A stretch of 64,000 bases of DNA from Candidatus Limnocylindrales bacterium (GCA_038328755.1 JBBQMH010000004.1:2193-66192), one strand, 5' to 3'. Shown: positions 4,651 to 43,358, numbered from the stretch's first letter. Made by a program: numbers and translations. Notes: generated by a model from the letters alone, not told the origin.

Positions 4651-4671
4651 CGGTAATACCTCTCCGGTGCC

Positions 4672-4890: not shown

Positions 4891-4936
4891 CGATTGGGGA
4901 AGTTCTTGCCGGGCATCCTACGCTCTTTCGTGTGAC

Positions 4937-5632: not shown

Positions 5633-5701
5633 GTCCCGCTCCCGGTCGGCGCCAGGTCCCCGGACCGCGCCGCGCGGCTCAATCCACGAGGGATCCTCTT
5701 C

Positions 5702-6766: not shown

Positions 6767-6823
6767 CAGTCTGTGTCAAGCCGCGGCACCGGCGGCCGCT
6801 GGATGAACAGGACGGGAGCCCGG

Positions 6824-7525: not shown

Positions 7526-7575
7526 GTCCGGAATCTACCGGGCCGGGCCCGGACGTGCTCGTCGGGTGCGGCCCG

Positions 7576-8808
7576 CTACTCGACGGTGCTGTAGAGCGCC
7601 TCGATCCGAGCGACCGATTCGTCCAGGCGCGCCTCCGTGATCCGGCCCGAGGCGAGGTGATCCATCACGATCGTGATCACGTGGTCGACAATGTCAGGGT
7701 CATAGACCTGCTGATTGGCGAACAGCAGAAGATCCACGCCCGAGGCGATTGCAAGAGCGATCGCCTCGCCGTCCCCATAGCGCTGGGTGACAGCCGGAGC
7801 TTGGAGGTCATCGCTGATGACCACACCCGACCAGCCCAACTGGTTGCGCAGGAGCCCGGTGACCGTGACGCGAGACAGCACGGCCGGATAATCCGTATCC
7901 AGCTGGCCATTGACGATCCCGCCGACCATCACGGCGCTCGGGAGATCGGCGCTGATCAGGGCGCGGAACGGCTCCAGTTCAGTCTCGGTCCAGGTCGCCG
8001 TCACGTCCACGACTCCCTTGTCGGTGTTGCCCGTGGCGCTGCCTTCTCCCGGAAAGTGCTTGATCGCGGTTCGGATCCCTGCGCCGCGCAGCGCCTCGAT
8101 GACGGCAGTCGCATGGGCCACCACGACCACTGGGTCGGCCGAGAAGCTGCGATCGAGAGCCCCGATGGCCGGGTTCGACGGATTGACGTTGAGATCGACC
8201 ACAGGGGCCAGGTTGAAATCGATCCCGGCACCGGCCAGCGTGATGGCGGTCAGTACTGCGGCGTTCGTCGTGCGCTCGAGGTCATCTGCGGCCCCAAGCT
8301 CGGCTGCCGAGGGGGTCGCCGGATACCCATTCGTGGGGTTCAGCCTCGCCACGCGGCCGCCTTCCTGGTCCACCGCGATCAGCAGATGCGGTCCGATGGA
8401 ACCCCGGAGGGCCGTCGATCGCAGCAGTCCGGTCAGTGCGCCGAGTTGATCCGGGGCGACGATGTTGCGCCCGGTCGTCTTCGTCTGGCCGTCCCGGTCG
8501 AACAGGATGACCCCGCCGAGCTCGCCGGCGGCGATCGCCTGCATGAACGGCTCGGTTGGAGCCGGGGCGGTGCCTCGGAACCCGATGACGAGCATCCGGC
8601 CGATCTTGCGGCGGAGGCTAGCGATCGATGTCTGCGTCGAGCTGGCCGAGGGCGTCGGGGCCTCGGTGGGATCCAAGGTCGCATCGGCCGTCCGCAGGGG
8701 CGCGGGGCTCCCGGTGCCCCGGGCCGACTCGGTGACCCCCGGTGTCGCGGTTCCTCCACCCACGCAGGCGGCGACGACCACCCCGATGACCCCGGCGAGC
8801 GCGGCCAC
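7576..8808 (-). CDS. glycoside hydrolase family 3 beta-N-acetylhexosaminidase-like lipoprotein
   Basis: GH3 N-domain motifs GGVILFDRD, NLAPVVDLNVNPSNPAIGALDRSF, IKHFPGEGSATGNTDKG and VVISDDL. Lipobox VVAAC near the N-terminus. GTG start at 8808; a possible upstream CTG start at 8838 is discussed in findings. Confidence 0.8.
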   Translation of the reverse strand: MAALAGVIGVVVAACVGGGTATPGVTESARGTGSPAPLRTADATLDPTEAPTPSASSTQTSIASLRRKIGRMLVIGFRGTAPAPTEPFMQAIAAGELGGVILFDRDGQTKTTGRNIVAPDQLGALTGLLRSTALRGSIGPHLLIAVDQEGGRVARLNPTNGYPATPSAAELGAADDLERTTNAAVLTAITLAGAGIDFNLAPVVDLNVNPSNPAIGALDRSFSADPVVVVAHATAVIEALRGAGIRTAIKHFPGEGSATGNTDKGVVDVTATWTETELEPFRALISADLPSAVMVGGIVNGQLDTDYPAVLSRVTVTGLLRNQLGWSGVVISDDLQAPAVTQRYGDGEAIALAIASGVDLLLFANQQVYDPDIVDHVITIVMDHLASGRITEARLDESVARIEALYSTVE

Positions 8809-8834
8809 GAACCGGCGTCGCGACAGCGGGGCAG

Positions 8835-9779
8835 TCAGGCGGTCCGTGCCAGAATCTCCATCAGCATACCGACGAACTTCGGCTCGTCGGCGTCCATGGC
8901 GAACTGGACGTTGGCCGGCCGACCGCTCCGGAAACTGAAGTCACACACCGTTCGCCCGACGGATAGCTCCCCGGCGACCTCCACATCAACCGGAATGAAC
9001 TTCGTCGTGATGATCGAAGGGTCGATCACCGCGCAGACCGCGAGTGCGTCATGGACCGGGGCGGCATTCATGCGATGCATCGGCTGGGTGGCGTCGTAGC
9101 CCTCGATTCGCTTCTCGACGAAACGCGCCGCGGCTTCTCCCGCGGGTGTCCCGAGGGCACGCAGGGCGCCGCAATCGTCGAGGGAAACGAGCGCCCGGTG
9201 CGTCGCGTCAAGCGGGACCATTCGGATGGGCCGCCCGCAATTCACCACGATCCTCGCGGCTTCCGGGTCGAGCCAGATGTTGAACTCGGCGGACGGGGTC
9301 GAGTTCCCGTGATGGTGGGCTCCACCCATGATCACGATCTGTGGAATCCGCTCCAGGATCCGTGGCTCCTTCACGATGGCCGCGGCGACGTTCGTCAACG
9401 GTCCGACCGGCACGAGCGTGATGTCGCCATCGGACGCGAGGTACATGTCGATCAGCCAGTCCACGGCGTGTCCCGGTTGGAGCTTCGCGTGCGTGGCCGG
9501 CGGAAGATCCAGCAGCGAACCATGTATCCGACTGGCGGGGTTCAGCTGCGTCATCTGCGCCCGGGCCAGGGGCCGCGTCATGCCCATGTGGACCGGAATT
9601 GCCGGCAGCCCGATCCAGTCGAACACCCGCAGCGTGTTCTCGGTGCAGTTGTCGACGGTCGTGTTGCCGTTGACCGTGGTGGCACCGACCAGCTCGATAT
9701 CGGGCGAGAGCGCCGCGACCATCAGGGCGACGGCATCGTCGGTCCCGGTATCAACGTCGAGGATGATCCTGGTGGGCAT
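8835..9779 (-). CDS. nucleoside hydrolase (inosine/uridine-preferring family)
   Basis: N-terminal MPTRIILDVDTGTDDAVAL (DxDxxxDD fingerprint). Start moved to ATG 9779; the 50 upstream residues of the listed ORF are Arg/Ser/Pro junk. Confidence 0.9.
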   Translation of the reverse strand: MPTRIILDVDTGTDDAVALMVAALSPDIELVGATTVNGNTTVDNCTENTLRVFDWIGLPAIPVHMGMTRPLARAQMTQLNPASRIHGSLLDLPPATHAKLQPGHAVDWLIDMYLASDGDITLVPVGPLTNVAAAIVKEPRILERIPQIVIMGGAHHHGNSTPSAEFNIWLDPEAARIVVNCGRPIRMVPLDATHRALVSLDDCGALRALGTPAGEAAARFVEKRIEGYDATQPMHRMNAAPVHDALAVCAVIDPSIITTKFIPVDVEVAGELSVGRTVCDFSFRSGRPANVQFAMDADEPKFVGMLMEILARTA

Positions 9780-10604: not shown

Positions 10605-11504
10605 GTGCTGCGTCCCGCACAGAAGCTCGTGGTTCCGCTCGACGGCGGTGCCAGCGATCCTCACCTCGTCGGGGGCAAGGCTGCATCGTTGGTCAACCTC
10701 GTCGACCTGGGTTTTCGGGTGCCGCCGGGGTTCTGCCTCACGACCGAGGCCTTCGAAGTGCAGCGCCGCGCGACGCCTGGCATTCAGTCCCGGATCGATC
10801 GCCTGCCGGATGAGGCGGCGCGAACAGGGCTGGCAGCCGCGTTCGAAGGTGGCCCGCTCGAGCCGACCGTTGGAGCGGCGCTCGACCTCGGGATCCGCGA
10901 ACTCGTCTCTACGTTGAGCCGCACCACGAGCGCGGCGCCGCGATTCGCCGTGCGCTCTTCAGGGATCGGTGAGGACAGCTCTGCCGCGTCGTTCGCCGGG
11001 CTTCACGAAACAGAGCTTGACGTCGCCCCGGCTGACGTACCCGACGCCGTCCGCCGCTGTTGGGCATCCCTGTGGAGCGCCCCTGCCGTCGCCTATCGAC
11101 AGCGGCGCGGCCTGGAAGCCGACGGTGGCGGCATGGCGGTCGTCGTCCAGGCCCTGGTTCCTGCCGACGCCGCCGCGGTCGTGTTCACTCGCCACCCGGT
11201 CACAGCGCGGACGGACCAACTTGTCATCACCGCCGTTCGCGGGCTCGGCGATGCGATGGTGTCGGGAACCGTGACACCCGATACGTGGGTCATCGACCGG
11301 GACTCCCGCGCCATTGCGGACTACACGCCGGGGGACCGCGCGCCATCCCAGATCGGACCGGCGCTCGACGCCGTATCGCTGAACGACCTCGCCGAGCTCG
11401 CCGTGGCCGTTGAAATCAGCATCGGATCGGCCGTGGATATCGAAGCGGCGATGGCCGGCGGGACCTGGTACCTCCTCCAGGCACGTCCGATCACGACCCG
11501 ATGA
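10605..11504 (+). CDS. PEP/pyruvate-binding ATP-grasp domain protein (PPDK_N type)
   Basis: GGKAASLVNLVDLGFRVPPGFCLTTEAF, FAVRSSGIGEDSSAASFAGLHET, and ends at WYLLQARPIT, the usual end of the PpsA/RPH ATP-grasp domain. GGAGGAG lies 5 nt upstream of GTG 10605. Confidence 0.8.
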   Translation: MLRPAQKLVVPLDGGASDPHLVGGKAASLVNLVDLGFRVPPGFCLTTEAFEVQRRATPGIQSRIDRLPDEAARTGLAAAFEGGPLEPTVGAALDLGIRELVSTLSRTTSAAPRFAVRSSGIGEDSSAASFAGLHETELDVAPADVPDAVRRCWASLWSAPAVAYRQRRGLEADGGGMAVVVQALVPADAAAVVFTRHPVTARTDQLVITAVRGLGDAMVSGTVTPDTWVIDRDSRAIADYTPGDRAPSQIGPALDAVSLNDLAELAVAVEISIGSAVDIEAAMAGGTWYLLQARPITTR

Positions 11505-13195
11505 CGAACTCGTACCAGCGTCCGGCTGGCCCGAAGCCGGGGCACTCAAGTTCCTCGTCCGACGCGTTTCCAACGCCATGGGAGGACCACGCCGACCCCG
11601 ATCGATCGTGGTCGTGGGATGACATGCACATGCCGTTCGCGCTGGTGCCCCTTGCCGCTGACTACGTACGTACGCTCGGCCAGGGCTTCAACCTCGCCCC
11701 CCAGCAATTCGGTGGTTTCCCACAACGTTGGTACATCCGGATCTGGAACGGCTACGCCTACTTCGCCCAGGACGCCAACACGACCGAGGAGACGAAGGCG
11801 GACGTTGACGCTCGGTGGCTTGCCGTCCTCCGCGAGCGAGCGGAGGTCACCGCAACGTACTGGGCCGATGACGTACTCCCTGAACTCAAGGGGCTGGAGT
11901 CGCAGCTTCGGACGCTGCCAGTCGAAGATCTCGCCCCGACGCAACTCGCCGCCGGTTGGGACGAGGCGTGGGCCGCGGTTCGCCGCATGTGGGAATTGCA
12001 CTTCTGCATCATCCTCGGGCCTTATCAGGTCCTCGAGGACCTGGCCGATCTGTACGAGAAGGCGGTTCCGGGGGCGAGCCCCGGTGAGTCCCTCCGCCTG
12101 GTGCAGGGAACACGGAATGACCTCCTTGACGCCGAACTTGGGATCGAGCGGCTGGCCGAGGAGGCCGCGGCTCGTCCCGCAATCAGGCAGCTCCTCGCGG
12201 CCCAAGCGGGGGGCGACACCAGTGGTGGCCACGGGTCGGCACGCACCCGGCCGATCACGGACGAGATCCGGGAGCTCCCCGGGGGACCGTCCTTTCTGGT
12301 GGAACTCGATGCATTCCTTGCTCGACACGGGCGCCTGGGCCAGCCCTTTGACGATCTTGCGCTGCCGTCGTGGGCGGAGGCACCCGACCTTCTCCTCACC
12401 CAGCTCGGGATGCACCTCGCGAGACCGCCAGAACCGGCCGAGGCGCGGCGCGCGCGGTTGGCCGCCGACGCGGCATCCCTGGCCGACGGGGTTCGAGTGC
12501 GGCTGGCGACACAGCCAGAAACACTCCGGCAGTTCGAGCATCTCCTGTCACTCGCTCGCGCGATCGGCCCGTTGACGGAGGGCCACAACTACTGGATCGA
12601 CCGCCTGGCCCAGGCGCGCATTCGGAGCCTCGTTATGCGCGTCGGGCAGCGCCTGAAAGCGGAACGAAGTCTCGCCGATGCGGACGACATCCTGTTCCTG
12701 TCTCGCGACGAAATTCGCGACCTGATCCTCACGCCCCGTGGTACCAGCGAACTCGTGACCCAGCGACGCGCCGAGCATGCGGCGCAGCGGACCCTGACTC
12801 CCCCGCCGGAAGTCGGACGGGCCAGTACTCCGAGCACCGACCGGTTCGACGGCGAGCGGTTCACCTCGACCGAACCGGGCGTCCTGCGCGGAACTGGAGC
12901 CTCGGCCGGCGTCGTGCGCGGGCCCGCCCGGGTGACGCTCGGCTCAGAAGACTTTGGCCGGATCAGACCTGGGGACATCATCGTCTGCCCGTCCTCGAAC
13001 CCCTCCTGGGTGCCGGTCTTTGTCGTCGCAGCCGGCCTGGTCACGAATACGGGCGGAATCCTGTCCCATGCGGCCGTCGTGGCTCGTGAATTCGGATTGC
13101 CCGCCGTCGTGGGAACCGGGGACGCCACGTCCCGAATTGCCGACGGCCGGATGATCGAGATCGACGGCGCGACCGGGTTCGTGCGTCTCCTGTGA
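11501..13195 (+). CDS. PEP-utilising enzyme, central domain plus C-terminal phosphohistidine swivel domain
   Basis: The C-terminus GDIIVCPSSNPSWVPVFVVAAGLVTNTGGILSHAAVVAREFGLPAVVG is the mobile His domain. The start overlaps the previous stop (ATGA at 11501-11504). Confidence 0.8.
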   Translation: MTNSYQRPAGPKPGHSSSSSDAFPTPWEDHADPDRSWSWDDMHMPFALVPLAADYVRTLGQGFNLAPQQFGGFPQRWYIRIWNGYAYFAQDANTTEETKADVDARWLAVLRERAEVTATYWADDVLPELKGLESQLRTLPVEDLAPTQLAAGWDEAWAAVRRMWELHFCIILGPYQVLEDLADLYEKAVPGASPGESLRLVQGTRNDLLDAELGIERLAEEAAARPAIRQLLAAQAGGDTSGGHGSARTRPITDEIRELPGGPSFLVELDAFLARHGRLGQPFDDLALPSWAEAPDLLLTQLGMHLARPPEPAEARRARLAADAASLADGVRVRLATQPETLRQFEHLLSLARAIGPLTEGHNYWIDRLAQARIRSLVMRVGQRLKAERSLADADDILFLSRDEIRDLILTPRGTSELVTQRRAEHAAQRTLTPPPEVGRASTPSTDRFDGERFTSTEPGVLRGTGASAGVVRGPARVTLGSEDFGRIRPGDIIVCPSSNPSWVPVFVVAAGLVTNTGGILSHAAVVAREFGLPAVVGTGDATSRIADGRMIEIDGATGFVRLL

Positions 13196-14625
13196 ACTCG
13201 TCGCGGCCCGGGTCGCTGCTGACAGCAGCCATGCTCGGCGTCGCCAGCGGATCGGTCCTGGTGCCGCTGAACTCGACGATGCTGGCCGTGGCCCTGCCGG
13301 GAATCATGGACGAGTTTCACCTCGGCGCGGGCGCAGTGGCGTCGCTCGTCACGCTCTACCTCGGTGCCGTCGCGGTCGCCCTTCCGGTGAGTGGTTCGCT
13401 CGGTGATCGGTTCGGCCATCGACGCATGTTCCTGCTCGGCGTCGCCGTCTTTGCCCTGGCCTCAGCAGTCGCGGTCGGCGCAACGTCGTTCGGGCTCCTC
13501 CAGGCTGCCCGCGTGCTGCAGGCGGTGAGTGGTGCCTTCGTCTCCACCAGCTCGGCGGCACTGATCCGAGAATTTGCCCCTCCCGCCCGACGCGGCGAGG
13601 CATTCGGCCTGTTCGATCTCCTCGTCTCGACCTCCGCCGCTGCGGGACCGTTCATCGGCGGTGTGCTGGTCGGCCTGTTCGGATGGCGCAGCCTCTTCGT
13701 CGTGGCCGTGCCGGTGGCGGTGATCGCGCTGGCCAGCGTCGGTCTGCGCCGTTCGCCGGCCCCCGAGCCCGATCCGGCGTCGATCGCCGGACCTGCGGAG
13801 CTTGCCACTGTCAGCCCGCCGGCACGGCCGAGGACCCCACTGGACCTGCTCGGTCTCGCCCTGCTGGCGGCGATCATCGGCTCCTTCCTCATTGCGATTC
13901 GCGGTGGCGAGGGCGCGATTCCGATCGTGGCGGCCGTCGCGATCATCCCCCTGGGCGTTGTCTTCATCCGGTATGAACTGCGGATCGACCATCCAGCCGT
14001 CGACCCGCGGTTGTTCGGCCATCGACCCTTCGCCGCAGCCGTCGCCGGGGTGTTCGGCAGCACCATCGTGCTGCATGCCAGTTTCATCCTGATCCCGCTG
14101 CTGGTCGAGCGGATCCTGAGTGGGTCTGCAACCACGAGCGGCCTCGTCCTCCTCGGGATCTCCGGTGTGGCCGCCTTCGTCGCACCGCTTGGCGGTCGAG
14201 CCTCGGATCGCCGGGGCCGGCGCGCCCTGGTCGTCGCCGGGAGCCTCGTCATGGCGATTGGACTCACGGGCCTGTGGACGCCAGTGGGTGGCTCGTCGTT
14301 CGTGGCGATCGCCCTGCTGCTCGGGGTCGTCGGACTCGGGATGGGCCTGTCCGGGTCAGCCCGCCAGGCGGCAGCGTTCGAGGCCATCCGCCCGGAGCGT
14401 GTCGGGATGGCCGCGGGAACCTACTACACCGGCCGTTACCTGGGTGGCGTGGTCGGGGCCAGTCTCGCCGGTGCCCTCCTCGCCTCATCGGTTACGAGTG
14501 CCTCCGTTTCTCTTGGATTCGGGGTTCTCGTGCTCGTATCCCTGGCCGTAGCGCTGGCGTCGCTTGGCCTGCCGGGACGTCGATCACCGGAACCGACGGC
14601 AGCCGGCCCCGCATCTAGGCCCTAA
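13192..14625 (+). CDS. MFS transporter (drug:H+ antiporter-like)
   Basis: Many TM helices and the MFS loop motif LPVSGSLGDRFGHRRMFLLG. GTGA overlap with the upstream gene at 13192-13195. Confidence 0.85.
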   Translation: MNSSRPGSLLTAAMLGVASGSVLVPLNSTMLAVALPGIMDEFHLGAGAVASLVTLYLGAVAVALPVSGSLGDRFGHRRMFLLGVAVFALASAVAVGATSFGLLQAARVLQAVSGAFVSTSSAALIREFAPPARRGEAFGLFDLLVSTSAAAGPFIGGVLVGLFGWRSLFVVAVPVAVIALASVGLRRSPAPEPDPASIAGPAELATVSPPARPRTPLDLLGLALLAAIIGSFLIAIRGGEGAIPIVAAVAIIPLGVVFIRYELRIDHPAVDPRLFGHRPFAAAVAGVFGSTIVLHASFILIPLLVERILSGSATTSGLVLLGISGVAAFVAPLGGRASDRRGRRALVVAGSLVMAIGLTGLWTPVGGSSFVAIALLLGVVGLGMGLSGSARQAAAFEAIRPERVGMAAGTYYTGRYLGGVVGASLAGALLASSVTSASVSLGFGVLVLVSLAVALASLGLPGRRSPEPTAAGPASRP

Positions 14626-20218: not shown

Positions 20219-22984
20219 CTACTTATCGCGTTCGACGGCGGCGAGCGACGCCTGGGCGGCCGCGAGCCGGGCCACCGGGACGCGGAACGGCGAGCACGAG
20301 ACGTAGTCGAGACCGATCTTCTCGCACTTGGCGATCGAGGCCGGATCTCCTCCGTGCTCGCCGCAGATGCCGAGTTCGAGGCCTGGCTTCGTGGCCCGGC
20401 CCTTCTCGACGGCGATCCGCATGAGGCCCGCGACCGCGTCGTCGAGGGTCTGGAACGGATTGAAGGGCAGGATCTTGTCCTCAACGTACTTGAGGAGGAA
20501 GCCGCCCTCGGCATCGTCGCGGCTGTAGCCGAACGTCATCTGGGTAAGGTCATTCGTGCCGAAGCTGAAGAAATCAGCCTGGGTCGCGATCTCGTCGGCC
20601 GTCAGTGCGCCACGCGGAACCTCGATCATGGTTCCGAACTTGTACTCGACGTTGACGCCGGCCTTCGCCTCGACCGCCTTGGCCTCGGCCTCGAGGAGCT
20701 CGCGGGTGCGCGCCAGCTCATTCACGTGCCCGACGAGCGGGATCATGATCTTGGCGATCGGGTGCCCACCGGCCTTCACCCGAGCGATCTGGGCGTTCAG
20801 GATCGCCCTGGTCTGGATCTTCACGAAGTCGGGGATCATCAGCCCGAGGCGGCAGCCGCGGAGTCCGAGCATCGGGTTCTGCTCATGCATCGCCTTGATC
20901 GTCGCGAGGAGCTCACGATCCTCAGCCGAGGCCGCGTCACCCGCCTTGGTCACCTTGACCAACTGCTCCTCGAGGTTGGGCAGGAACTCGTGGAGCGGCG
21001 GGTCGATGAGCCGAACCACCACCGGCAGGCCATCCATCGCCTCGAAGATGCCCTCGAAGTCGCCCTGCTGCAGAACCTCGAGCTTGGCCATCGCCGCGTC
21101 GAACGTCTTGACTGCGTGCTGCTCGTCGGCGTCAAGCGTCGCGCCGGTGGCGAGCTTGTCCTTGGCCCGAGTCGCGCGGTTGGCGACGAGGATCGCGCCG
21201 CGCACGATCTCCAGGCGATCGCCTTCGCGGAACATGTGCTCGGTCCGGCAGAGACCGATGCCCTGGGCCCCGTAGCGGCGGGCCTGCGCGGCCTCCTCGG
21301 GCTTGTCGGCGTTCGTCCAGACCTCCATCCGACGGACCTTGTCCGCCCATCCCAGGATCGCCTGGAGCTGGGGCTGGTCCTCGAATCGCGCCGAGATCGT
21401 CGGCAGCGGACCCGAGAACAGGTCGCCGGTCGTCCCGTCGAGGCTGATCCAGTCTCCCTCGCCGAAGGCGATATTTGATGAAGTCGATGTTGCCCGCTTC
21501 GTCGCGTAGTCGATGACGAGATCCGCGCACCCGGCGACGCACGGCTTGCCGATCTGGCGCGCCACGACAGCCGCGTGGGAGGTCGCACCGCCGCGGGCGG
21601 TGATGATCCCCTCCGCCACGGCCATGCCATGGAAGTCATCCGGCGACGTCTCGATCCTGACGAGGATCACCTTCTCGCCTCGGCCGACCCACTCGACGGC
21701 CACGTCGGCATCGAAGACGGCGCGGCCGACAGCCGCGCCAGGCGAGGCGTTGAGGCCCTTCACGATCTGCGACGCGTCGGCGCGGGTGCCCGGGTCGAAC
21801 TGATCACGCAGGAGCTGGTCCACCATCCCGGGCTCGATCCGGCCGATGGCCTCTTCGTGGCTCAGGATCCCTTCCTCGACCATGTCGACGGCGATCTGGA
21901 CCGCGGCAGCGGCGGTCCGCTTGGCCGACCGGGTCTGGAGCATGTAGAGGCGACCACGCTCGATCGTGAACTCGAGGTCCTGGACGTCGCGGTAGTGGTG
22001 CTCGAGCCGGTCGGCGATGGCCTGGAACTCGTCATAGACGGCGGGCATGACATCGCGCATCTGGGCAATGGGCTGCGGAGTCCGGATCCCGGCCACGACG
22101 TCCTCGCCCTGGGCGTTGGTCAGGTACTCGCCATAGAGGGCCCTGGCGCCCGTGTTCGGGTCGCGGGTGAAGGCCACGCCGGTGCCCGAGTCGTCGCCCA
22201 TGTTGCCGAAGACCATCGTCACGACGTTGACGGCGGTACCGAGATCGTGGGCGATCTTGTTGTACTCGCGGTAGTCACGGGCCCGCTTACCGAACCACGA
22301 CGCAAAGACGGCCTTGGTCGCGAGGTCCAGCTGCTCGTTCGCATCTTCGGGAAATTCGCGCCCGGAGACCTCGCGGACGATCTCCTTGTACTGGCCAGCG
22401 AGTTCGCGCAGGTCGGCGGCCGACAGGTCCGTGTCCTGCTTGGCCTCGCGCGCCTTCTTCATCGACTCGAGGGCGTGGTCGAAGCGCTCGCCGGGCACCT
22501 CCATCACGATCCGTCCGAACATCTGGATGAAGCGGCGATAGGCATCCCAACCGAACCGCTCGTTCCCGGTCAGGGCAACGAGGCCCTTGAGGGTCGCCTC
22601 GCTGAGTCCGAGATTGAGGACGGTATCCATCATCCCCGGCATGGAGAACTTGGCCCCGGACCGAACCGACACGAGCAGCGGATTGCCTGGATCCCCGAAC
22701 CCCTTGCCGGTCTCGGCCTCGACCTGCGCGATGGCCTCGAGGATGTCCTCCCACAGCCCATCCGGCAGCCGGGATCCAGCCGTGAAATAGTCGTTGCAGG
22801 CCTCGGTCGTGATCGTGAAACCGGGTGGAACGGGCAGGCCCGCGCTGGTCATCTCGGCGAGGCCTGCGCCCTTGCCACCGAGCAGATCGCGCATCGTTGC
22901 GTCGCCCTCGGCCTGTCCGGCGCCCCAGGCGTAGATGTAGCGCTTCGCCGCGCGATGAGCGCGATCCGTCCGGGCAGCTGACAT
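20219..22984 (-). CDS. ppdK: pyruvate, phosphate dikinase
   Basis: MRDLLGGKGAGLAEM, phosphohistidine region GGATSHAAVVARQIGKPCV, C-terminal GLCRTEHMF and FFSFGTNDLTQM. Start at ATG 22984 with GAAGGAG about 9 nt upstream; the listed start at 23182 adds non-homologous residues. Confidence 0.95.
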   Translation of the reverse strand: MSAARTDRAHRAAKRYIYAWGAGQAEGDATMRDLLGGKGAGLAEMTSAGLPVPPGFTITTEACNDYFTAGSRLPDGLWEDILEAIAQVEAETGKGFGDPGNPLLVSVRSGAKFSMPGMMDTVLNLGLSEATLKGLVALTGNERFGWDAYRRFIQMFGRIVMEVPGERFDHALESMKKAREAKQDTDLSAADLRELAGQYKEIVREVSGREFPEDANEQLDLATKAVFASWFGKRARDYREYNKIAHDLGTAVNVVTMVFGNMGDDSGTGVAFTRDPNTGARALYGEYLTNAQGEDVVAGIRTPQPIAQMRDVMPAVYDEFQAIADRLEHHYRDVQDLEFTIERGRLYMLQTRSAKRTAAAAVQIAVDMVEEGILSHEEAIGRIEPGMVDQLLRDQFDPGTRADASQIVKGLNASPGAAVGRAVFDADVAVEWVGRGEKVILVRIETSPDDFHGMAVAEGIITARGGATSHAAVVARQIGKPCVAGCADLVIDYATKRATSTSSNIAFGEGDWISLDGTTGDLFSGPLPTISARFEDQPQLQAILGWADKVRRMEVWTNADKPEEAAQARRYGAQGIGLCRTEHMFREGDRLEIVRGAILVANRATRAKDKLATGATLDADEQHAVKTFDAAMAKLEVLQQGDFEGIFEAMDGLPVVVRLIDPPLHEFLPNLEEQLVKVTKAGDAASAEDRELLATIKAMHEQNPMLGLRGCRLGLMIPDFVKIQTRAILNAQIARVKAGGHPIAKIMIPLVGHVNELARTRELLEAEAKAVEAKAGVNVEYKFGTMIEVPRGALTADEIATQADFFSFGTNDLTQMTFGYSRDDAEGGFLLKYVEDKILPFNPFQTLDDAVAGLMRIAVEKGRATKPGLELGICGEHGGDPASIAKCEKIGLDYVSCSPFRVPVARLAAAQASLAAVERDK

Positions 22985-23025
22985 GAGGGCAGGCTCCTTC
23001 ACTGATTGGGCGCGAGCGGCACGCA

Positions 23026-23056
23026 GCCGCAATTGATCGGTGGATTGCGGCAATTG
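23026..23056. promoter_or_regulatory. candidate operator in the ppdK / fpr divergent intergenic region
   Basis: GCCGCAATTG (23026-23035) and GCGGCAATTG (23047-23056) are direct repeats 21 nt apart. CCGCAAT (23027-23033) and ATTGCGG (23044-23050) form a perfect inverted repeat. Confidence 0.25.
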
Positions 23057-23150
23057 TACCGTTGGAGACGGGCCGGGCCGTTGGACCGCGTGGGCCAGCC
23101 CGCATCTACAATCGTGACGAGCAGATCCACACGGAGCCAGCACCACCCTC

Positions 23151-23960
23151 ATGACCGACCACGCCGAAGACACCCGGATCATCGATCCCGATGCGCCCGT
23201 CTACAACGCCACTCTCGTCCGCCGCGAGGATCAGTCCGATGAGCTCGGTTCGTTCTGGGTCCGCCTGGACGGCGATCCGGTCGCGTTCGTACCGGGGCAA
23301 TACCTGACGATCGGCGTCGTGGTCGATGGCAAGCTGCTCCAGCGGCCGTATTCGGTCGCCTCGGCGCCCCAGGACGGCGGGACCGAGGGCTACGAGCTCT
23401 ACGTTCGGCTCGTGCCGGTGATCCGCTTCACGACGGCGCTCTGGCGTATCCCGATCGGGCATCGATTGCGACTGATCGGACCAAAGGGCAAGTTCCTCCT
23501 CGAGCCCGATGACGACCGCACGCATCTGTACGTCTCGACTGGAACGGGAATCGCTCCGTTCATCAGCATGATCCGGGACACGCTGCTTCGTGGGGACCCG
23601 CGCAAGACCGTCGTGCTCCACGGCTGCTCGTACGAGGACGAGCTCGGTTACCGCGACTACCTCGAGACGCTCGAGCGCGACGGTACCTATCCCGTCACTT
23701 ACGTCCCGACCATTTCGCGCCCGGATAGCCCGCGGAACACCGGCTGGACCGGTCGCACCGGTCGCGTCGAGGCGATCGTGAGCACCGTCTGCAAGGATCT
23801 CGGTCTTCGTCCCAATAGGACCGTCGTCTATATCTGCGGCAATCCCGAGATGATCCTGAACGTCGAGCGATCCCTGATGGACCGCGGCTTCCCGGAGTTC
23901 CACGTCAAGAAGGAACTCTATTGGCCGAAGGGTAAGGACGCCGCCCTCATGACCGGCTGA
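23151..23960 (+). CDS. ferredoxin--NADP(+) reductase (Fpr-type flavoprotein)
   Basis: FAD motif RPYSVAS, NAD(P) motif STGTGIAPFISMIRD, and YICGNPEMI. Confidence 0.85.
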   Translation: MTDHAEDTRIIDPDAPVYNATLVRREDQSDELGSFWVRLDGDPVAFVPGQYLTIGVVVDGKLLQRPYSVASAPQDGGTEGYELYVRLVPVIRFTTALWRIPIGHRLRLIGPKGKFLLEPDDDRTHLYVSTGTGIAPFISMIRDTLLRGDPRKTVVLHGCSYEDELGYRDYLETLERDGTYPVTYVPTISRPDSPRNTGWTGRTGRVEAIVSTVCKDLGLRPNRTVVYICGNPEMILNVERSLMDRGFPEFHVKKELYWPKGKDAALMTG

Positions 23961-24095
23961 CCTGTGCGCGCCGCGACCCCGTGAGACCCCGCGGTAGGTG
24001 ACCTTCGGCCCCCGCCAACCGTGCGGTCCGGCGCTGTCGGTCCGGCGTGCGCCCGGGCGACCATCAGGACAGGAATTCCTAGCCTGGTGTCCCGA

Positions 24096-24980
24096 ATGCA
24101 TCGCGTTCTCAAGAATGAGCGTCTCTCCCCCAACGTAACCCGCCTGGTCCTGGAGGCTCCTCGAATCGCGGAGATCCGGCAGCCGGGCCAGTTCGTGATC
24201 GTCCACCTTGGCCCCGGCGCCGAGCGGATCCCATTGACGATTGCCGACGGCGACGCCGTGGCCGGCACAATCTCCCTGGTGATCCAGGCGATCGGCAAGA
24301 GCACCACCGATCTCGTGGAGCTTGAGCCGGGAGACGCCATCGCGGACATCGCCGGTCCTCTCGGACGCCCGACGGAACTGCCCAAGGACGGGCACGCGGT
24401 GTGCGTCGGCGGAGGCGTAGGGACCGCGGTCATCCTTCCAATTGCCCAGGAGCTCCATCGTCGAGGGGTCGCGGTGACCAGCATCATCGGCGGACGCTCA
24501 CGCGAGTGGGTCATCCTGGAACCGGAGCTGGCCGCCTGCGGGACGGTCGTCGCCTGTACCGACGATGGCAGTTACGGCCGGCCAGGCTTCGTGACCCAGG
24601 CGCTTGCCGACGTCCTTGCTGAGCAGGAGGCCGATGAGGTCTTCGCTGTCGGCCCGGTGCCGATGATGCGGGCCGTGGCGGAGATGACGCGGCCGCTGGG
24701 CGTCCAGACGACCGTCTCGCTGAACCCGGTGATGGTCGATGGAACCGGGATGTGCGGCGGCTGCCGGGTCACCATTGACGGCGAGACGCGCTATGCCTGT
24801 GTCGATGGGCCCGAGTTCGACGGCCATCAGGTCGATTTCGGCGAACTGGCCGATCGCCTGACCACCTATCGACCCTTCGAGAAGGCGGCCCTCGAGCGCC
24901 GAGCCTGCGAGGTCGGTCTGCGCACGCGGCCGAAGTCCGGATCAGAATCCGCCGCACCCACAGGGGGAGTCACGGCATGA
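24096..24980 (+). CDS. sulfide/dihydroorotate dehydrogenase-like FAD/NAD-binding protein with 2Fe-2S site (NfnA/SudB/PyrK-like small subunit)
   Basis: MHRVLKNERLSPNVTRLVLEAP, GQFVIVH, VGGGVGTAVILPIA, and C-terminal cluster CGGCRV...YACVDGPEF. ATG at 24096; ATGA overlap with the next gene. Confidence 0.8.
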   Translation: MHRVLKNERLSPNVTRLVLEAPRIAEIRQPGQFVIVHLGPGAERIPLTIADGDAVAGTISLVIQAIGKSTTDLVELEPGDAIADIAGPLGRPTELPKDGHAVCVGGGVGTAVILPIAQELHRRGVAVTSIIGGRSREWVILEPELAACGTVVACTDDGSYGRPGFVTQALADVLAEQEADEVFAVGPVPMMRAVAEMTRPLGVQTTVSLNPVMVDGTGMCGGCRVTIDGETRYACVDGPEFDGHQVDFGELADRLTTYRPFEKAALERRACEVGLRTRPKSGSESAAPTGGVTA

Positions 24981-38593: not shown

Positions 38594-39604
38594 TCAGGCG
38601 AAGCGCTCCAAGTCGCCCAGTGGCACGTGCACGGGCTGCCGCCCGCCAAGACGAATGAGGCCGGCCTCAAGCACCACACCCCCGGCAAACCGATGCAGCC
38701 CGGCGAGGCCGGCCCATCGACCCTCGAGGCCGGCAAGCGGACCAGCCGTCACACGAACCAATCCACGTGGCTGGGCCGGCGCCGCAATCCGGTCGTCGTC
38801 GAAGATGAGGCAGGCCGGTTCCGGAATGATGGCCGTCATCTGGCCCTCGAGCGCCGTGAGCACGGCCATGACCGGCGTGGCGATCGGACGCCCAAGCGCA
38901 CCCTCCAGGACCAGGATCGCGAACGGGGGCAGATCGTGAACGCCGGACCGGGCTCGCCGCTCGGATGCGATCACCTCACGACGTTCCTTGACGCCCAGGC
39001 CGGCCACGATCATGCCGCGCACACCAACCGCCCGGGCCCGGGTGATCGCCTCGGCGTCGATCGTCGCTCCGACGACGAGGATGGCTCCCGCGCCGCCGAC
39101 GTCGATCTCCGACGTCCGGACATGTCCGTCCCGAGCGGCCAGGACGTGGACCTTGCCGACGGTCGGCCCACCGAGGGCATCGGCCCCCACGAGCGCCTGT
39201 GCCTCCATCCGAAGGCTCAGTCCCGCTCCGGGCGCGACACTACCGACCATCCCGCTGAATGGGGCCGTCAGCGGATCTCCGAGTTCCCCCGTGGCCACGC
39301 GCCACCGACCACCGCTCCGGAACAGGAGCTCGCCCTGTCCGATCCGCCCGACCGCTCCGCGACGGGCGGGACGGCCGGCCCACCAGGTCCCGGGCTGCGT
39401 CTCCGACCCGCCCGGGCCACTGGCAACCTCGGTCCGAAGGTCCCGCCGGCGCTCGGCCAGTGGTGCCCCACGGACCACGGCTTCGCCTGGCGAAACGAGC
39501 GCCTGCTCACCTGGTTGCATCGAGAACCAGGCTTCAAGGCCGCGCACGGTGACCTGTCGAGGGCGAACGAGCTCGAATCCGAGCGGCAGCGTGTCGGTCG
39601 TCAT
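38594..39604 (-). CDS. hypothetical protein, 336 aa, with C-terminal NusG-like KOW motif
   Basis: GC3-rich ORF with ATGA overlap to the upstream 547-aa ORF. The C-terminus GLVRVTAGPLAGLEGRWAGL...VLEAGLIRLGGRQPVHVPLGDLERF resembles a KOW/SH3 barrel. The middle segment AILVVGATIDAEAITRARAVGVRGMIVAGLG looks like a swivel domain without the His. Confidence 0.6.
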   Translation of the reverse strand: MTTDTLPLGFELVRPRQVTVRGLEAWFSMQPGEQALVSPGEAVVRGAPLAERRRDLRTEVASGPGGSETQPGTWWAGRPARRGAVGRIGQGELLFRSGGRWRVATGELGDPLTAPFSGMVGSVAPGAGLSLRMEAQALVGADALGGPTVGKVHVLAARDGHVRTSEIDVGGAGAILVVGATIDAEAITRARAVGVRGMIVAGLGVKERREVIASERRARSGVHDLPPFAILVLEGALGRPIATPVMAVLTALEGQMTAIIPEPACLIFDDDRIAAPAQPRGLVRVTAGPLAGLEGRWAGLAGLHRFAGGVVLEAGLIRLGGRQPVHVPLGDLERFA

Positions 39605-41244
39605 CGTTCGTCTCGCGGCCAGGCTTGGGTGCTCCAGTCCGCCAGTCTGGTGCGTCGCCGATCTCGTCGCTCCGGGAGGTGCAGGGGAACATCGCGCAGG
39701 TCGACAACGAGGCCGGCCAATCCGCCGGTCGCGGAAACGGTGACCCGACGGGTCCGGCGCCCGAAACGGATCGTCCGGCCAAATTCAAGACGGGCTTCTC
39801 CGGCCGCTCCGGGTGGGAGATCCAGAAACGCCACCTCACCCGCGTTCAGGTCGCGCTCGACGGTCGCGCCGACGCTCTCGAGGGAAAGGTGGGCGTATGG
39901 CGTCTTCGCACGGCCGCCGGTGGCCGGCTTGGCGCCGGCGCCACCGGCGATGACGAGCGTCCCCAGCGGGACGAGCCCGTCACGGGCCAGGTCCGCGAGG
40001 AGCAGACGCCGCTCGGCTGGATCCTCGATCGTCCCGATCGGCCCCAGGAGCCGAGCGTGGTCGCGGACGAGCTGGGTTGTGCCGACCCGCCGAATCGTAT
40101 CCGCCACGGCAAGCGCCACGGCCTGGGGCGGGGCGGTGGCGAAGGCACCGCCGCAGACCACGGTCAGATCGGGAGAAGCGAGCGCGTCGACCTCCGGGGT
40201 CAGGCTGGCGAGACGGGCCAATGCGGCGCTGGCTGCAGCCAACCTGAGGCGCGCTCCTTCTCCAGTCCCGTCGACCCACGGACGCCGCCGTAGCTCGCGG
40301 AGCCGGTCACTCATCCGGTGCCGGTCGAGGCTGCCCGTGGACCACGCCAGGACCGAGTCGACGATCTCGTCGTCCGGCTCGGCCGGGGCGAGGCCCCCAT
40401 CGGTGGAAATGACGCCACTGCTCGTTGGACCCGCGCCGCCGACGCCCGGTTCCGCCAGGAATCGAGCGCCTCCGTGAAACCCGACATCGAGCACCTCGGT
40501 CCGGCGATCGAGCAACTCCGCCAGCGACTCGGCAGTCGCGCGCAGGCCGCGACGGCCGTCATCAGGCGCGTCGATCAGTCGATCCAGCGCGACCCGGAGA
40601 TCGTCGCCCGTCCCGCGCCGGCCGGCGATGACCGGAGCGGCCGTGATCCGGGCCGGATCGCCGGGCGGATCGTTGCCCAGCGCGTCGAGCCACGATCGGC
40701 GTGCCCGCAGTGCACCGGACAACAGGAGCCGCAATTCGGGACGGCGCCGCGCGGCGGCTCCAGCGAGTGCGGCCAGATCGTCGAGCGCGGCCCGTTCGTC
40801 GGCACCGGGCGGGTCGCTCACACCGATCAGGACGGCGCTCACATCGCGCCGCAGGACCAGCTCGGTCATCTCGCGGGGATCGTGCGTTTCGGTGGAGGCG
40901 GTCACGACCCGCCAGCCGGTCCGGTGGGCATGAATCGAGAGCTCGTCGACCGTGCGCCGCGTGGCGCCGATGACCGCCAGGGTTTCCGGCGGCCGGCTTC
41001 GGGCCGCCAGGCGCGGCATCCAGTCGAGCGCAGTGTCGCGCAGTTCGGGGTGTTTCCCGAGCTCGGGATCCGCGTCGCGTAGTCGTCCGACCAGCACGGC
41101 CAGCAGTGCGGATTCGGAGGTCCCGGCCGGGCCGGCAAGACTGCCCATGAGGCGCCAATGCCCGGCAATGCGGACGAGCAGACTGACCGAGGTGGTGGCG
41201 CCACCAGCATCGATCACGGCGAGGGTCTCAGGTGCCCGGGTCAC
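39601..41244 (-). CDS. hypothetical protein, 547 aa, with actin-like (ASKHA) ATPase-type motifs (MutL/EutA-like?)
   Basis: LAVIDAGGATTSV at residues 8-20 (PHOSPHATE-1-like), VLDVGFHGGA at about 251-260 (PHOSPHATE-2-like), and DLTVVCGGAFA at about 359-369 (ADENOSINE-like), in the canonical order. No other family signature recognised. Confidence 0.6.
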   Translation of the reverse strand: MTRAPETLAVIDAGGATTSVSLLVRIAGHWRLMGSLAGPAGTSESALLAVLVGRLRDADPELGKHPELRDTALDWMPRLAARSRPPETLAVIGATRRTVDELSIHAHRTGWRVVTASTETHDPREMTELVLRRDVSAVLIGVSDPPGADERAALDDLAALAGAAARRRPELRLLLSGALRARRSWLDALGNDPPGDPARITAAPVIAGRRGTGDDLRVALDRLIDAPDDGRRGLRATAESLAELLDRRTEVLDVGFHGGARFLAEPGVGGAGPTSSGVISTDGGLAPAEPDDEIVDSVLAWSTGSLDRHRMSDRLRELRRRPWVDGTGEGARLRLAAASAALARLASLTPEVDALASPDLTVVCGGAFATAPPQAVALAVADTIRRVGTTQLVRDHARLLGPIGTIEDPAERRLLLADLARDGLVPLGTLVIAGGAGAKPATGGRAKTPYAHLSLESVGATVERDLNAGEVAFLDLPPGAAGEARLEFGRTIRFGRRTRRVTVSATGGLAGLVVDLRDVPLHLPERRDRRRTRLADWSTQAWPRDER

Positions 41245-41299
41245 CCCGCCATGCTACCGGCGCATGAAGAACCTGGGCGTGCCGGTTGATCCTGCGAGT

Positions 41300-41596
41300 T
41301 CACGCGTCCCAGGTGATCTCTTCGTCGAGGTCCTCGAGCCGCTCGATCAGCTGCTCAATCCCGTCATCGTCCGCCAGGATGGCGCTGGCACCGGCCATCT
41401 CGCCGCCGAAGAGACTCCGCAGAACCGGGTCGAAGAAAAGCATGGCATTGGCACCGAGCGGCCGATACGGACGACTCGCGTGGAGGAAATGCACGGCGGA
41501 GGTGGTCATGCCGCGAAGCTGGATCTCGCGCGCAACCTCCTCGATGAGCTCGTCGCGCTGATCGTCGGGCATCTCGCCCGGCCCGAACGTGGTCAC
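41300..41596 (-). CDS. hypothetical acidic protein, 98 aa
   Basis: The GTG start overlaps the macro-domain gene stop (GTGA at 41593-41596). Both termini are acidic (DDQRDELIEE, LEDLDEEITWDA). No motif recognised. Confidence 0.5.
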   Translation of the reverse strand: MTTFGPGEMPDDQRDELIEEVAREIQLRGMTTSAVHFLHASRPYRPLGANAMLFFDPVLRSLFGGEMAGASAILADDDGIEQLIERLEDLDEEITWDA

Positions 41597-42144
41597 GTTG
41601 ACATCGCGGGAGTGCCGCCCTCGGGCCTGCCGGCCATGAGGGTCGGCCCGGCCAATGCACGCTGGAACGCCTGATAGGCGGCCGATCCTCGCAGCGCCAG
41701 GACGACCTGGACGAGGCTTCCTGGATCGACGAGCTCTTCGCGGAGCGTCCTGACCACGACATCGGCCGCTTCATCGAGTGGAAAACCGCCGACGCCGGTC
41801 CCGAGCGCGGGGAATGCGATGCTCGTCGCGCCAATTTCTCTCGCGCGCGCCACGGCGCTCCTGACCGCTGCGGCAATGGCTTCCGCCGTCGTTCGGCGAT
41901 CGTGGTCCAGTGACACGGCATGAATGACGGCCTTCGCCGCGAGGCGTCCCGCGGGCGTCACGACCGCCGACCCAATGGCCAGTGGGCCCTGGCGGACGGC
42001 CGCAAACTCGATCTCGTCCCCACCGGCCCGCTTGAGTGCTCCGCCGACACCAGTCGACATCCAGAGCGAGGGGCCCGCAGGGTTCACGATCGCGTCGACC
42101 TCGAGGACGCAGATGTCCCCGTTCCACAGTTCCAGGCGAGTCAT
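41593..42144 (-). CDS. macro domain protein (ADP-ribose / O-acetyl-ADP-ribose binding or hydrolase)
   Basis: GDICVLEVDAIVNPAG, GVGGALKRAGG, KAVIHAV, SIAFPALGTGVGGFP. The ATG overlaps the alr stop (ATGA at 42141-42144). Confidence 0.85.
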   Translation of the reverse strand: MTRLELWNGDICVLEVDAIVNPAGPSLWMSTGVGGALKRAGGDEIEFAAVRQGPLAIGSAVVTPAGRLAAKAVIHAVSLDHDRRTTAEAIAAAVRSAVARAREIGATSIAFPALGTGVGGFPLDEAADVVVRTLREELVDPGSLVQVVLALRGSAAYQAFQRALAGPTLMAGRPEGGTPAMST

Positions 42145-43358
42145 CCGTCTCCTCCGGAGACGAGGGTGCGGGTAAGCGTCGATCCGGCCGCGGCATCGTA
42201 CACCCGAGGAAGCCGCCGGGCCATGTTCGTGACGACCTCCCAGGAATTGGTGGTGCGGCGCCGCGCCAGGTCCGCGACCGTGATCTGAGCGGACCCCTGC
42301 CGTCCGATGAGGACGAATTCATCGTCGATGGTCACCGGTGGGCCGGGCACCTTCGTGACGTCGGCCATGATCGCATCCATCGCGACGGTGCCGACGAGCG
42401 GCACGCGCACGCCACGGACGAGGGCTTCGGCGGCATTCGAGAGGGACCGAGACCAGCCGTCTCCGTATCCGAGCGGCAGCGTGGCGATCCGGCTGGGCCT
42501 GGCGGTCCGGAAGGTCGGGCCGTAGCTGATCCCCCAGCCGGCTGGCAGATCCGCAACCCTGACCGGGCGCGCCTTGAGCGAGAGAATGGGCCGAAGGGCC
42601 TGCGCGTGCGGGCTCAGCGGCCGATCGGCGAGCTCGTCGGGCACGAGGCCGTAGATCGACAGTCCAGGTCGTACCGAGTCGTAGGATGCCGCGCCCTCGG
42701 TCAGCAGTGAACCGCTCGCCCGAACGTGGCGGATTGGGATCCGAACACCTGCCTGGCGAAGCGCGGCAGCGGCCGCGTCGAAGGCCGCGAGCTGGCGCGC
42801 CGTGATGTCAGGGTCTTCTGCGGCTTGAAGGTGGGTCCACAGGCCGTCGAGACGCATGGACCGGTTGGCTGCCACGGTTCGCGCCGCCGAGACGAGCGCG
42901 TCGCCCACCATGCCGCCCCGCCCGAGTCCGGTTTCGACCTCCAGCTGAATGCCGAGGCGACGGCCCGTCCATCCCTCGAGCGCGCGGACGGTGCGATCGA
43001 GGAGCTGGGGGTCGCCAGCCGGAATCGCAATCCTTCGCCGCGCCGCCTCCTGGGCCCAGGCGGGCGGGATCGGGTACAGGACCTGGATCGGTCGACGGAT
43101 TCGAGCACGACGAAGCTCGAGGGCTTCGTCAATCGTGGCAACGCAGAACCCATCGGCCCCGGCTGCTTCGAGTGCTCGAGCGATCGGTATCGCCCCGTGG
43201 CCATAGGCATCTGCCTTGACGACCGGATGAACGGGCCTGCCGGATCCCGCCAGGGCGCGAAGGGTCGCCAGGTTGCCCACCAGGGCGTCAAGATCGATGG
43301 TCAGCCAGGCCGACCGCGGCAGCTCGGCGGTCGCGGGGATCCTCGGTGCCGGGGCCAT
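42141..43358 (-). CDS. alr: alanine racemase
   Basis: PLP-lysine motif VHPVVKADAYGHGAIPIA and C-terminal PLGYGDGWSR...VPLVGTVAMD. Confidence 0.95.
   Translation of the reverse strand: MAPAPRIPATAELPRSAWLTIDLDALVGNLATLRALAGSGRPVHPVVKADAYGHGAIPIARALEAAGADGFCVATIDEALELRRARIRRPIQVLYPIPPAWAQEAARRRIAIPAGDPQLLDRTVRALEGWTGRRLGIQLEVETGLGRGGMVGDALVSAARTVAANRSMRLDGLWTHLQAAEDPDITARQLAAFDAAAAALRQAGVRIPIRHVRASGSLLTEGAASYDSVRPGLSIYGLVPDELADRPLSPHAQALRPILSLKARPVRVADLPAGWGISYGPTFRTARPSRIATLPLGYGDGWSRSLSNAAEALVRGVRVPLVGTVAMDAIMADVTKVPGPPVTIDDEFVLIGRQGSAQITVADLARRRTTNSWEVVTNMARRLPRVYDAAAGSTLTRTLVSGGDG

Follow-up and report, generated by a model that had tools for sequence, protein, structure and literature searches.

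What is encoded by the genes that separate alr from tsaE in a bacterium of the Chloroflexota, and do these genes form a functional unit? We addressed this question in a stretch of 64,000 nt from Candidatus Limnocylindrales bacterium (GCA_038328755.1, JBBQMH010000004.1:2193-66192; Chloroflexota, class Limnocylindria), referred to below as the window, in which positions 38,594 to 42,144 carry four open reading frames (ORFs) on the minus strand: a macro-domain gene followed by genes for proteins of 98, 547 and 336 amino acids, here called p98, p547 and p336. The conserved unit consists of the last three genes (the trio), and profile comparisons through intermediate sequences suggest that p547 is a divergent relative of the GlmL/MutL proteins. 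We propose, tentatively and by analogy, that the trio may form an ATP-driven, GlmL-type complex resembling a chaperone or maturase, which would act on a housekeeping client.

The gene for p547 (39601-41244, GTG start codon) encodes a protein with no direct family match in Pfam, NCBIfam or PADLOC. The Pfam MutL family, PF13941, was not detected in the window protein or in 40 members from the same lineage (lineage A) even at E-values up to 10, and the scattered weak Pfam matches seen among 40 members at that threshold (B12-binding in 2, best E 0.0019; DUF4232 in 5) are not usable as a family assignment. Profile searches of the PDB, either with the p547 family or with the family of its more distant relatives described below, returned nothing significant. 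A family connection emerged through intermediate sequences. An exhaustive search of 1.84 billion representative proteins with the p547-family profile yielded 741 hits, including a distant, full-length match (E 7e-29) to protein P0501, which itself matches PF13941 with an E-value of 2e-24. We refer to loci encoding P0501-like proteins, which NCBI names Candidatus Limnocylindria, as the sister lineage. All 13 aligned sister proteins match PF13941 (best E 1.8e-30), the one from locus L094 over positions 2-442 of the 450 in the profile, and NCBI annotates the sister proteins as 'glutamate mutase L'. Aligning the p547 family with the sister GlmL-like family in hhalign gave a probability of 100 and an E-value of 1.2e-39 over 507 columns. 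This transitive profile evidence indicates that p547 is a very divergent ASKHA protein of the GlmL/MutL branch (PF13941, TIGR01319). The initial annotation had stated that only the macro domain of the four-gene segment is recognizable; the other three proteins indeed lack direct matches, but p547 can now be assigned to a named family by way of its relatives.

We also examined an AlphaFold2 (AF2) model of p547, which has a predicted local distance difference test score (pLDDT) of 87 and a predicted template modeling score (pTM) of 0.88. The first ASKHA lobe (residues 1-75; 41020-41244) is modeled with three beta strands leading into a helix and carries the phosphate-1 motif D12-x-G14-x-A16-T17-T18, the columns of which are invariant or nearly so in 40 sequences. 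Inserted in this lobe, as in the GlmL/MutL proteins, is a Rossmann- or flavodoxin-like alpha/beta domain with alternating strands and helices (residues 78-175; 40720-41013); the weak B12-binding matches of 2 of 40 members fall within it, the full-length PF13941 match of the sister protein extends over the equivalent region, and the inserted domain belongs to the core of the GlmL family. The second ASKHA lobe (residues 249-420; 39985-40500) contains the phosphate-2 motif D/E253-x-G255 and the adenosine motif G365-G366, and the equivalent positions are kept in the sister lineage (D272/G274 and G376/G378). The remaining part (residues 425-547; 39604-39972) is modeled as an all-beta domain and an Arg-rich terminal helix, DLRDVPLxLPERRDRRR..L..W, with invariant residues D515, R517, P520, P524, R526, R527, R529-R531 and W537 that are conserved in the sister lineage too. 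The PF13941 match of the sister protein stops at residue 428, and this C-terminal part of about 120 residues, which distinguishes p547 from GlmL/MutL, is a clade-specific addition outside the canonical GlmL model.

In a Foldseek comparison with the PDB, the matches listed for the p547 model include generic ASKHA proteins with E-values of about 1e-5 and probabilities of about 1.0, among them PilM, DnaK, the glycerol, gluconate, acetate and LsrK kinases, levoglucosan kinase and the corrinoid activator RACo. Judging from the model, the duplicated lobes and the three nucleotide motifs conserved in both lineages place p547 in the ASKHA superfamily, in agreement with its earlier description as 'ASKHA-like'. 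Since the nucleotide-binding motifs are kept, p547 most likely binds and hydrolyzes ATP. PilM is the top Foldseek match, and one could read this as a sign of an actin-like cytoskeletal element; however, the TM-scores to PilM are 0.23-0.35 and GlmL-type ASKHA proteins are not known to form filaments. We consider a cytoskeletal role, like the notion of a mobile or defence island discussed below, to be the least probable of the explanations weighed here.

To what extent the four genes belong together can be judged from their distribution. Searches returned 494, 458 and 1849 homologous clusters for p547, p336 and p98, respectively, all of them unnamed or 'hypothetical' and none with a Pfam domain; nearly all of the named organisms among them are Chloroflexota or Candidatus Limnocylindrales. 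When one genome per GTDB species was scanned, p547 relatives turned up in at least 137 genomes. The best 80 loci were kept from the scan with 137 p547-positive genomes, and their genome titles are those of Chloroflexota/Limnocylindria-type metagenome-assembled genomes, with a few titles naming other phyla. We compared twelve window proteins by tblastn with 82 lineage-A loci, that is, loci of the window's lineage (81 after removal of one duplicate), and counted presence in those loci that have a sufficiently long flank. By this measure, p98 is present in 79 of 79 loci, p336 in 73 of 73 and the downstream gene tsaE in 70 of 70, compared with 70 of 74 for the upstream gene alr and 50 of 79 for macro. 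The co-occurrence of p547 and p336, which the initial annotation had proposed to check by a neighborhood census, is complete, as the pair is found together in all 73 loci. Identities to the window proteins range over 70-98% for p98, the best conserved member of the trio, 42-97% for p547 and 44-97% for p336. The 55-nt gap between p98 and p547 (41245-41299) has a counterpart with a median of 58 nt (range 4-269) across loci.

In a clade without macro, alr directly abuts p98 (for example in L002). Since macro is absent from 29 of the 79 loci while the trio is intact, the conserved unit is p98, p547 and p336, and macro is a frequent but dispensable neighbor. At four loci (L023, L039, L040 and L041) alr is not at its usual place, and a NAD(P)HX dehydratase gene is followed directly by macro or p98; the trio and tsaE are kept there, which indicates that the linkage of the trio to alr is not obligatory. 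The operon order glmS-acpS-nnrD-alr-[macro]-p98-p547-p336-tsaE-tsaB-rimI-tsaD is a housekeeping arrangement of the class Limnocylindria, and the position of the trio in it is vertically inherited and lineage-wide. The initial annotation had described a four-gene module inserted between alr and tsaE; its position is as described, while the four-gene unit does not hold, and the segment, being class-wide and vertical, is an 'insertion' solely in comparison with Mycobacterium. A mobile or defence island was likewise rejected: the genes keep a strict, vertically inherited synteny, the trio has no PADLOC hit, and GC content is flat (0.68-0.74 over 33-48 kb), which leaves no compositional island.

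Several representative proteins of 650-790 aa among the profile-search matches (P0463, P0469 and P0486) resemble p547-p336 fusions, and one resembles a p547-p336-tsaE fusion. Their Arg/Ala-rich and partly garbled sequences suggest frameshifted or mis-called metagenome genes and not true fusions.

Homologs of p98, p547 and p336 also stand together in the sister lineage. The outer frame of the sister operon equals that of the window (glmS-acpS-nnrD-alr-macro ... tsaE-tsaB-rimI-tsaD), and its inner order is p81, DUF6754, mem220, p339, mem213, the GlmL-like gene (563 aa) and p365. Four of these genes encode membrane proteins: a DUF6754 protein of 280 aa (Pfam E 2.5e-18), the polytopic proteins mem220 (220 aa) and mem213 (213 aa), and p339 (about 339 aa), a membrane-anchored alpha/beta protein whose N-terminus has a hydrophobic segment. 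In L094 they extend over positions 4589-7947, and they are also found in L085, L086, L089, L092, L093 and L099; up to 17 sister loci have them, with identities of 48-95%. They abut or overlap their neighbors and occupy the exact place of the 55-nt gap of the window, between the p98 homolog and the GlmL-like gene. Profile searches found no relatives of the four proteins in the PDB.

These genes raise the possibility that the trio forms the cytoplasmic, energizing portion of a machine in the membrane that serves transport or envelope assembly, the membrane subunits of which would be encoded elsewhere in the genomes of the window's lineage. The interleaving of the four genes with the trio through abutting or overlapping junctions, and the fact that the lone gap in the window falls exactly at their position, would both fit such a machine, as would the envelope-related genes upstream (cdaA, cdaR, glmM, glmS, acpS and alr). 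On the other hand, tblastn with the four membrane proteins gave no match to the 64-kb window or to any of the 82 lineage-A loci, so that their link to the trio could be incidental; no ASKHA-driven transporter is known, and the genes could represent an unrelated insertion in the sister lineage. Either the sister lineage acquired them or the window's lineage has lost them. We regard a membrane machine as unlikely, though as the likeliest of the rivals to the GlmL-type reading.

The partner of p547, p336 (38594-39604), is a basic protein (pI 10.3) with no sequence match in Pfam, NCBIfam, PADLOC or the PDB; weak Pfam matches among its members at E-values up to 10 (DUF7406 in 6 of 37, KOW in 3 of 37) are unusable as a family assignment. 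An hhalign comparison shows it to be homologous to the sister-lineage protein p365, of 365 aa (probability 99.2, E 1.6e-19). The AF2 model (pLDDT 85.5, pTM 0.83) has three parts, the first of which is a beta-rich N-terminal domain (residues 10-155; 39140-39577) that is all-beta in the model. The half-motifs PGE..V..GAPLA and APFSGMV hint that this domain may be barrel-sandwich-hybrid-like; Foldseek gave no support for such a fold, and the hairpin lacks a conserved Lys.

The central part of p336 (residues 160-270; 38795-39127) resembles a swiveling beta/beta/alpha domain. Its Foldseek matches are rifampin phosphotransferase (5fbt, E 3.6e-3, probability 1.0), the UPF0107 protein 2hi6 (0.99), the RraA-family protein 5x15 (0.92) and the carrier domains of pyruvate phosphate dikinase (PPDK; 2fm4/5lu4). 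The domain thus shares the fold of the mobile domain of phosphoenolpyruvate (PEP) utilizers such as PPDK and rifampin phosphotransferase, and the swivel assignment is one of fold, read from the predicted model. Membership of the PEP-utilizer family itself (PF00391) was rejected, as there is no Pfam hit and hhalign gives a probability below 1 against the mobile domain of the PPDK encoded in the window. The latter, our comparator, is a full-length enzyme with PPDK_N, mobile and PEP-binding domains (20219-23182, minus strand). The residues K206-E207-R208 are invariant in p336, a protein with two lysines, and K-E is kept in the sister lineage. When placed by eye, without superposition, they appear to stand at the loop-to-helix position expected for the phosphohistidine of PEP utilizers, so that in this manual reading p336 has Lys-Glu where the mobile domains have His. 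The histidine H223 of p336 is not kept in the sister lineage.

These features bear on another explanation, in which p547 is a small-molecule ASKHA enzyme, a kinase or a hydantoinase/carboxylase-like protein, and p336 a carrier of substrate or phosphoryl groups, in a pathway of envelope precursors or of NAD-metabolite damage. The Foldseek matches of p547 to glycerol, gluconate, acetate, LsrK and levoglucosan (AnmK-like) kinases can be accommodated by this explanation, as can the invariant K206-E207-R208 in a two-lysine protein and the neighboring genes nnrD, macro and alr; the NCBIfam/TIGRFAM descriptions also tie GlmL to the hydantoinase branch. However, p336 offers no carrier histidine, H223 not being kept in the sister lineage, no kinase family matches at any threshold, and the metabolic neighbors are not constant (alr is absent from 4 of 74 loci and macro from 29 of 79). 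A metabolic enzyme seems to us quite unlikely.

The C-terminal part of p336 (residues 280-336; 38597-38767) may be a KOW/SH3-like barrel. The KOW tail reported by the initial annotation finds weak support: PF00467 matches 3 of 37 members at E-values of 0.05-0.14 over residues 280-296, scoring about 12.5 bits where the cutoff is 22.3, and Foldseek relates the barrel to ribosomal protein S4e with a probability of 0.80-0.90 and to NusG with just 0.07-0.16. If this barrel bound RNA, the trio might assist the modification of RNA or protein in translation, for example t6A formation by TsaBDE or the targets of RimI and RsmA. The constant position of tsaE after p336, in 70 of 70 lineage-A loci and in the sister lineage, is compatible with this, as are the high pI of p336 and the Arg-rich tail of p547. 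The whole block of 12 genes is syntenic, however, and the adjacency of tsaE is for that reason not specific; the support for KOW lies under every threshold, and TsaBDE is not known to need such partners in the bacteria in which it has been characterized. A role in translation appears improbable.

The smallest member of the trio, p98 (41300-41596), is acidic (pI 4.1), with 21 D/E, 7 R and no K. It has a near-invariant core of 45 residues, VAREIQLRGLTTSAVHFLHASRPYRPLGANAMLFFDPVLRSLFGG, and the members listed among its 1849 homologous clusters are 79-100% identical. No match was found in Pfam, NCBIfam, PADLOC or the PDB; the Pfam ODP matches of 18 of 27 members, at E-values of 0.02 or worse, are unusable as a family assignment. 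Its homolog in the sister lineage is the 81-aa p81 (probability 97.9 and E 4e-13 in hhalign). By sequence comparison, p336 and p98 appear to represent two unannotated families without known relatives.

The placement of p547 in the GlmL/MutL branch favors a chaperone or reactivase over the two other roles that the initial annotation had listed as speculative, in ADP-ribosylation or as a cytoskeletal element; of these, the former is disfavored by the dispensability of macro and the latter by the GlmL-type character of p547 and the low TM-scores to PilM. A chaperone function, the reactivation of glutamate mutase, has been ascribed to GlmL/MutL (PMC4682846). For the trio we infer ATPase activity, formation of a complex, a chaperone-like mechanism and a client, as follows. 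As an ASKHA ATPase, p547 would bind and hydrolyze ATP; p336, translationally coupled to it, would supply a mobile, swivel-type domain held between two beta domains; and p98 would be a small, acidic, near-invariant subunit or ligand. Together they would form a cytoplasmic, ATP-driven complex in which nucleotide-dependent domain movements open, mature or reset the client, as in GlmL and in the reactivases DdrAB/GdrAB and EutA. The client would not be glutamate mutase, because no locus has a B12 enzyme nearby, and the client or its anchor may be a membrane complex, because the sister operon holds four membrane-protein genes.

In reactivases of the DdrAB/GdrAB type, an ASKHA ATPase is joined by a swiveling domain (in DdrA). 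The folds predicted here share with DdrAB/GdrAB and EutA the presence of both an ASKHA ATPase and a swiveling beta/beta/alpha domain, and the ATP-driven change of conformation by which those systems act on a client enzyme would be common to both as well. Unlike in those reactivases, the swivel of the window lies on a separate polypeptide and is flanked by beta barrels, and no dehydratase or ammonia-lyase client is encoded at the window locus; DdrA and EutA are also absent from the 50 matches listed of the 86 that Foldseek gave for p547 at E-values up to 0.001. Compared with GlmL/MutL itself, p547 is too divergent for a direct match and has dedicated partners, p336 and p98, that are not known from GlmL loci. 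Genes for glutamate mutase (glmS/glmE subunits) or another B12-dependent mutase do not adjoin the trio in any of about 100 loci, the neighbors there being alr or macro and tsaE, and p547 has neither a glutamate mutase gene nor one for another B12 enzyme near it.

Several observations weigh against a GlmL-type chaperone. The window p547 has no Pfam or NCBIfam match at E-values up to 10, and against the accessory_GlmL equivalog model NF040745 the sister protein scores 40 bits (cutoff 475) and the window protein gives no match. The TM-scores of the p547 Foldseek matches are low (0.17-0.35), so that structure identifies the ASKHA superfamily but no specific subfamily. No B12-dependent or radical enzyme is encoded nearby in about 100 loci. 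For p336, there is no conserved His at the expected carrier position, nor any conserved across both lineages within the domain, and hhalign against the window PPDK shows no sequence similarity to PEP-utilizer mobile domains. To these points are added the lack of the four sister membrane proteins in the window and the 82 lineage-A loci and a poorly established biochemical role of GlmL itself. We consider an ATP-driven, GlmL-type complex to be the best candidate for the function of the trio, and hold it with less than even confidence.

The macro gene (41593-42144), which precedes p98, encodes a 183-aa protein in which the macro domain noted initially was found again (PF01661, E 2e-26, 92.7 bits against a gathering cutoff of 22, profile positions 1-117 of 118). 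Its top NCBIfam match is O-acetyl-ADP-ribose deacetylase (113 bits, cutoff 200), and the other matches, which include an ADP-ribose-binding protein, all fall under the equivalog cutoffs as well. The protein is thus similar to MacroD/YmdB-type hydrolases, both in the Pfam Macro match and in matches to NCBIfam PRK00431 models (E down to 9e-33), and differs from them in scoring under every NCBIfam equivalog cutoff and in being translationally chained to alr and p98. The gene is found in the sister lineage, too. If macro acted as an eraser, the four genes could be a device for ADP-ribosylation signaling or reversal, and the overlaps of macro with alr and p98 in the window and the same order of macro and p98 homolog in the sister lineage would be in line with this. 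Yet the trio is intact in the 29 of 79 loci without macro, no ADP-ribosyltransferase is encoded at the locus, and the macro protein resembles a generic MacroD/YmdB-type hydrolase, all of which makes such a device very improbable.

The DarTG system and other anti-phage defence were ruled out separately: a weak similarity of the macro protein to DarG (PADLOC, E 2e-6) stands alone in a syntenic housekeeping locus. There is no DarT-like partner gene at the locus, and PADLOC gives nothing for p98, p547 and p336.

The gene structure of the window agrees with the initial annotation in several respects. Four ORFs lie on one strand between alr and tsaE; the start of macro overlaps the stop of alr (ATGA), p98 overlaps macro (GTGA), the start of p336 overlaps the stop of p547 (ATGA), and the 55-nt gap is the sole non-overlapping junction of the chain. 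The flanking genes are as described, with alr (42141-43358, minus strand) followed further upstream by a Carb_kinase/NAD(P)HX dehydratase gene, acpS, glmS and glmM, and with tsaE, tsaB, rimI, tsaD and rsmA downstream of p336, all on the minus strand. In public gene calls, tsaE starts 65 nt past the p336 stop, later than the longest ORF implies. The coding-like bias reported for the third codon position was recovered too, as its GC content is 0.77-0.83 in the called frames of the four ORFs, equal to that of alr and tsaE; the big plus-strand ORFs that overlap the module are the usual artefact of DNA with 70% GC.

Purifying selection, which had been named as a further check, was assessed from pairwise ratios of nonsynonymous to synonymous substitution rates (dN/dS; NG86 method) against three to five relatives with protein identities of 97%, 93%, 76% and about 66%. 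The ratios are 0.04-0.18 for p98, 0.08-0.21 for p547, 0.11-0.24 for p336 and 0.11-0.20 for macro, and thus 0.04-0.24 over all four ORFs; the neighbors glmS, alr and tsaD gave 0.03-0.08, 0.13-0.22 and 0.08-0.24, respectively. The four ORFs are real genes under purifying selection at the level of housekeeping genes. A promoter and terminator scan of 34.5-48.5 kb found no promoter consensus and one terminator-like hairpin, inside p336, which is below chance expectation; the absence of internal promoter and terminator signals is weakly consistent with a single long operon.

Other parts of the window contain features of separate interest. Two tandem glycine riboswitch aptamers (Rfam RF00504, 52.9 and 37.2 bits; 4673-4893, minus strand) have directly downstream of them a gene for a 1007-aa glycine cleavage P-protein (GDC-P, E 1e-173; 1744-4767, minus strand), which is a classic arrangement. 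A 564-aa protein (11501-13195, plus strand), the gene of which overlaps the start of a major facilitator superfamily transporter gene (13192-14625, plus strand), has as its sole Pfam match a C-terminal PEP-utilizers mobile domain (E 1.7e-24), the N-terminal 480 residues being without a match; the protein could be an enzyme resembling rifampin phosphotransferase or PEP synthase. Two long ORFs, of 526 aa (7519-9099, plus strand) and 450 aa (23106-24458, minus strand), have no Pfam match at E-values up to 1e-5 and may be uncharacterized genes or non-coding shadow ORFs in this 70% GC DNA.

Limnocylindria (formerly Ellin6529) are abundant, uncultured Chloroflexota of soil and freshwater. Of at least 137 species-level genomes encoding a relative, 81 related loci were examined, and the module occupies one and the same site in every one of them. 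Because its operon otherwise consists of essential genes for the envelope and for tRNA modification, and because its own genes change no faster than these, the module is probably important for the cell. A literature search found nothing on the p98-p547-p336 module and, among the papers searched, no mention of DUF6754. The immediate importance of the finding is moderate, since the module is confined to one class, its function is one that we infer, and conserved hypothetical operons are common in uncultured phyla. What is new is a GlmL-type ATPase in a B12-independent context of three to seven genes that is confined to the class Limnocylindria. The GlmL/MutL branch thereby gains a second genomic context, one that does not involve B12, and two unannotated partner families are defined and linked to DUF6754. 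It is conceivable, if rather doubtful, that the trio and the four sister membrane proteins constitute an unrecognized, class-specific machine in which a GlmL-like ATPase has been recruited to B12-independent housekeeping of the membrane or envelope; if true, the GlmL-type ATPase family would gain a new functional class. Identification of the partners and the client would reveal a general role of GlmL-type ATPases.

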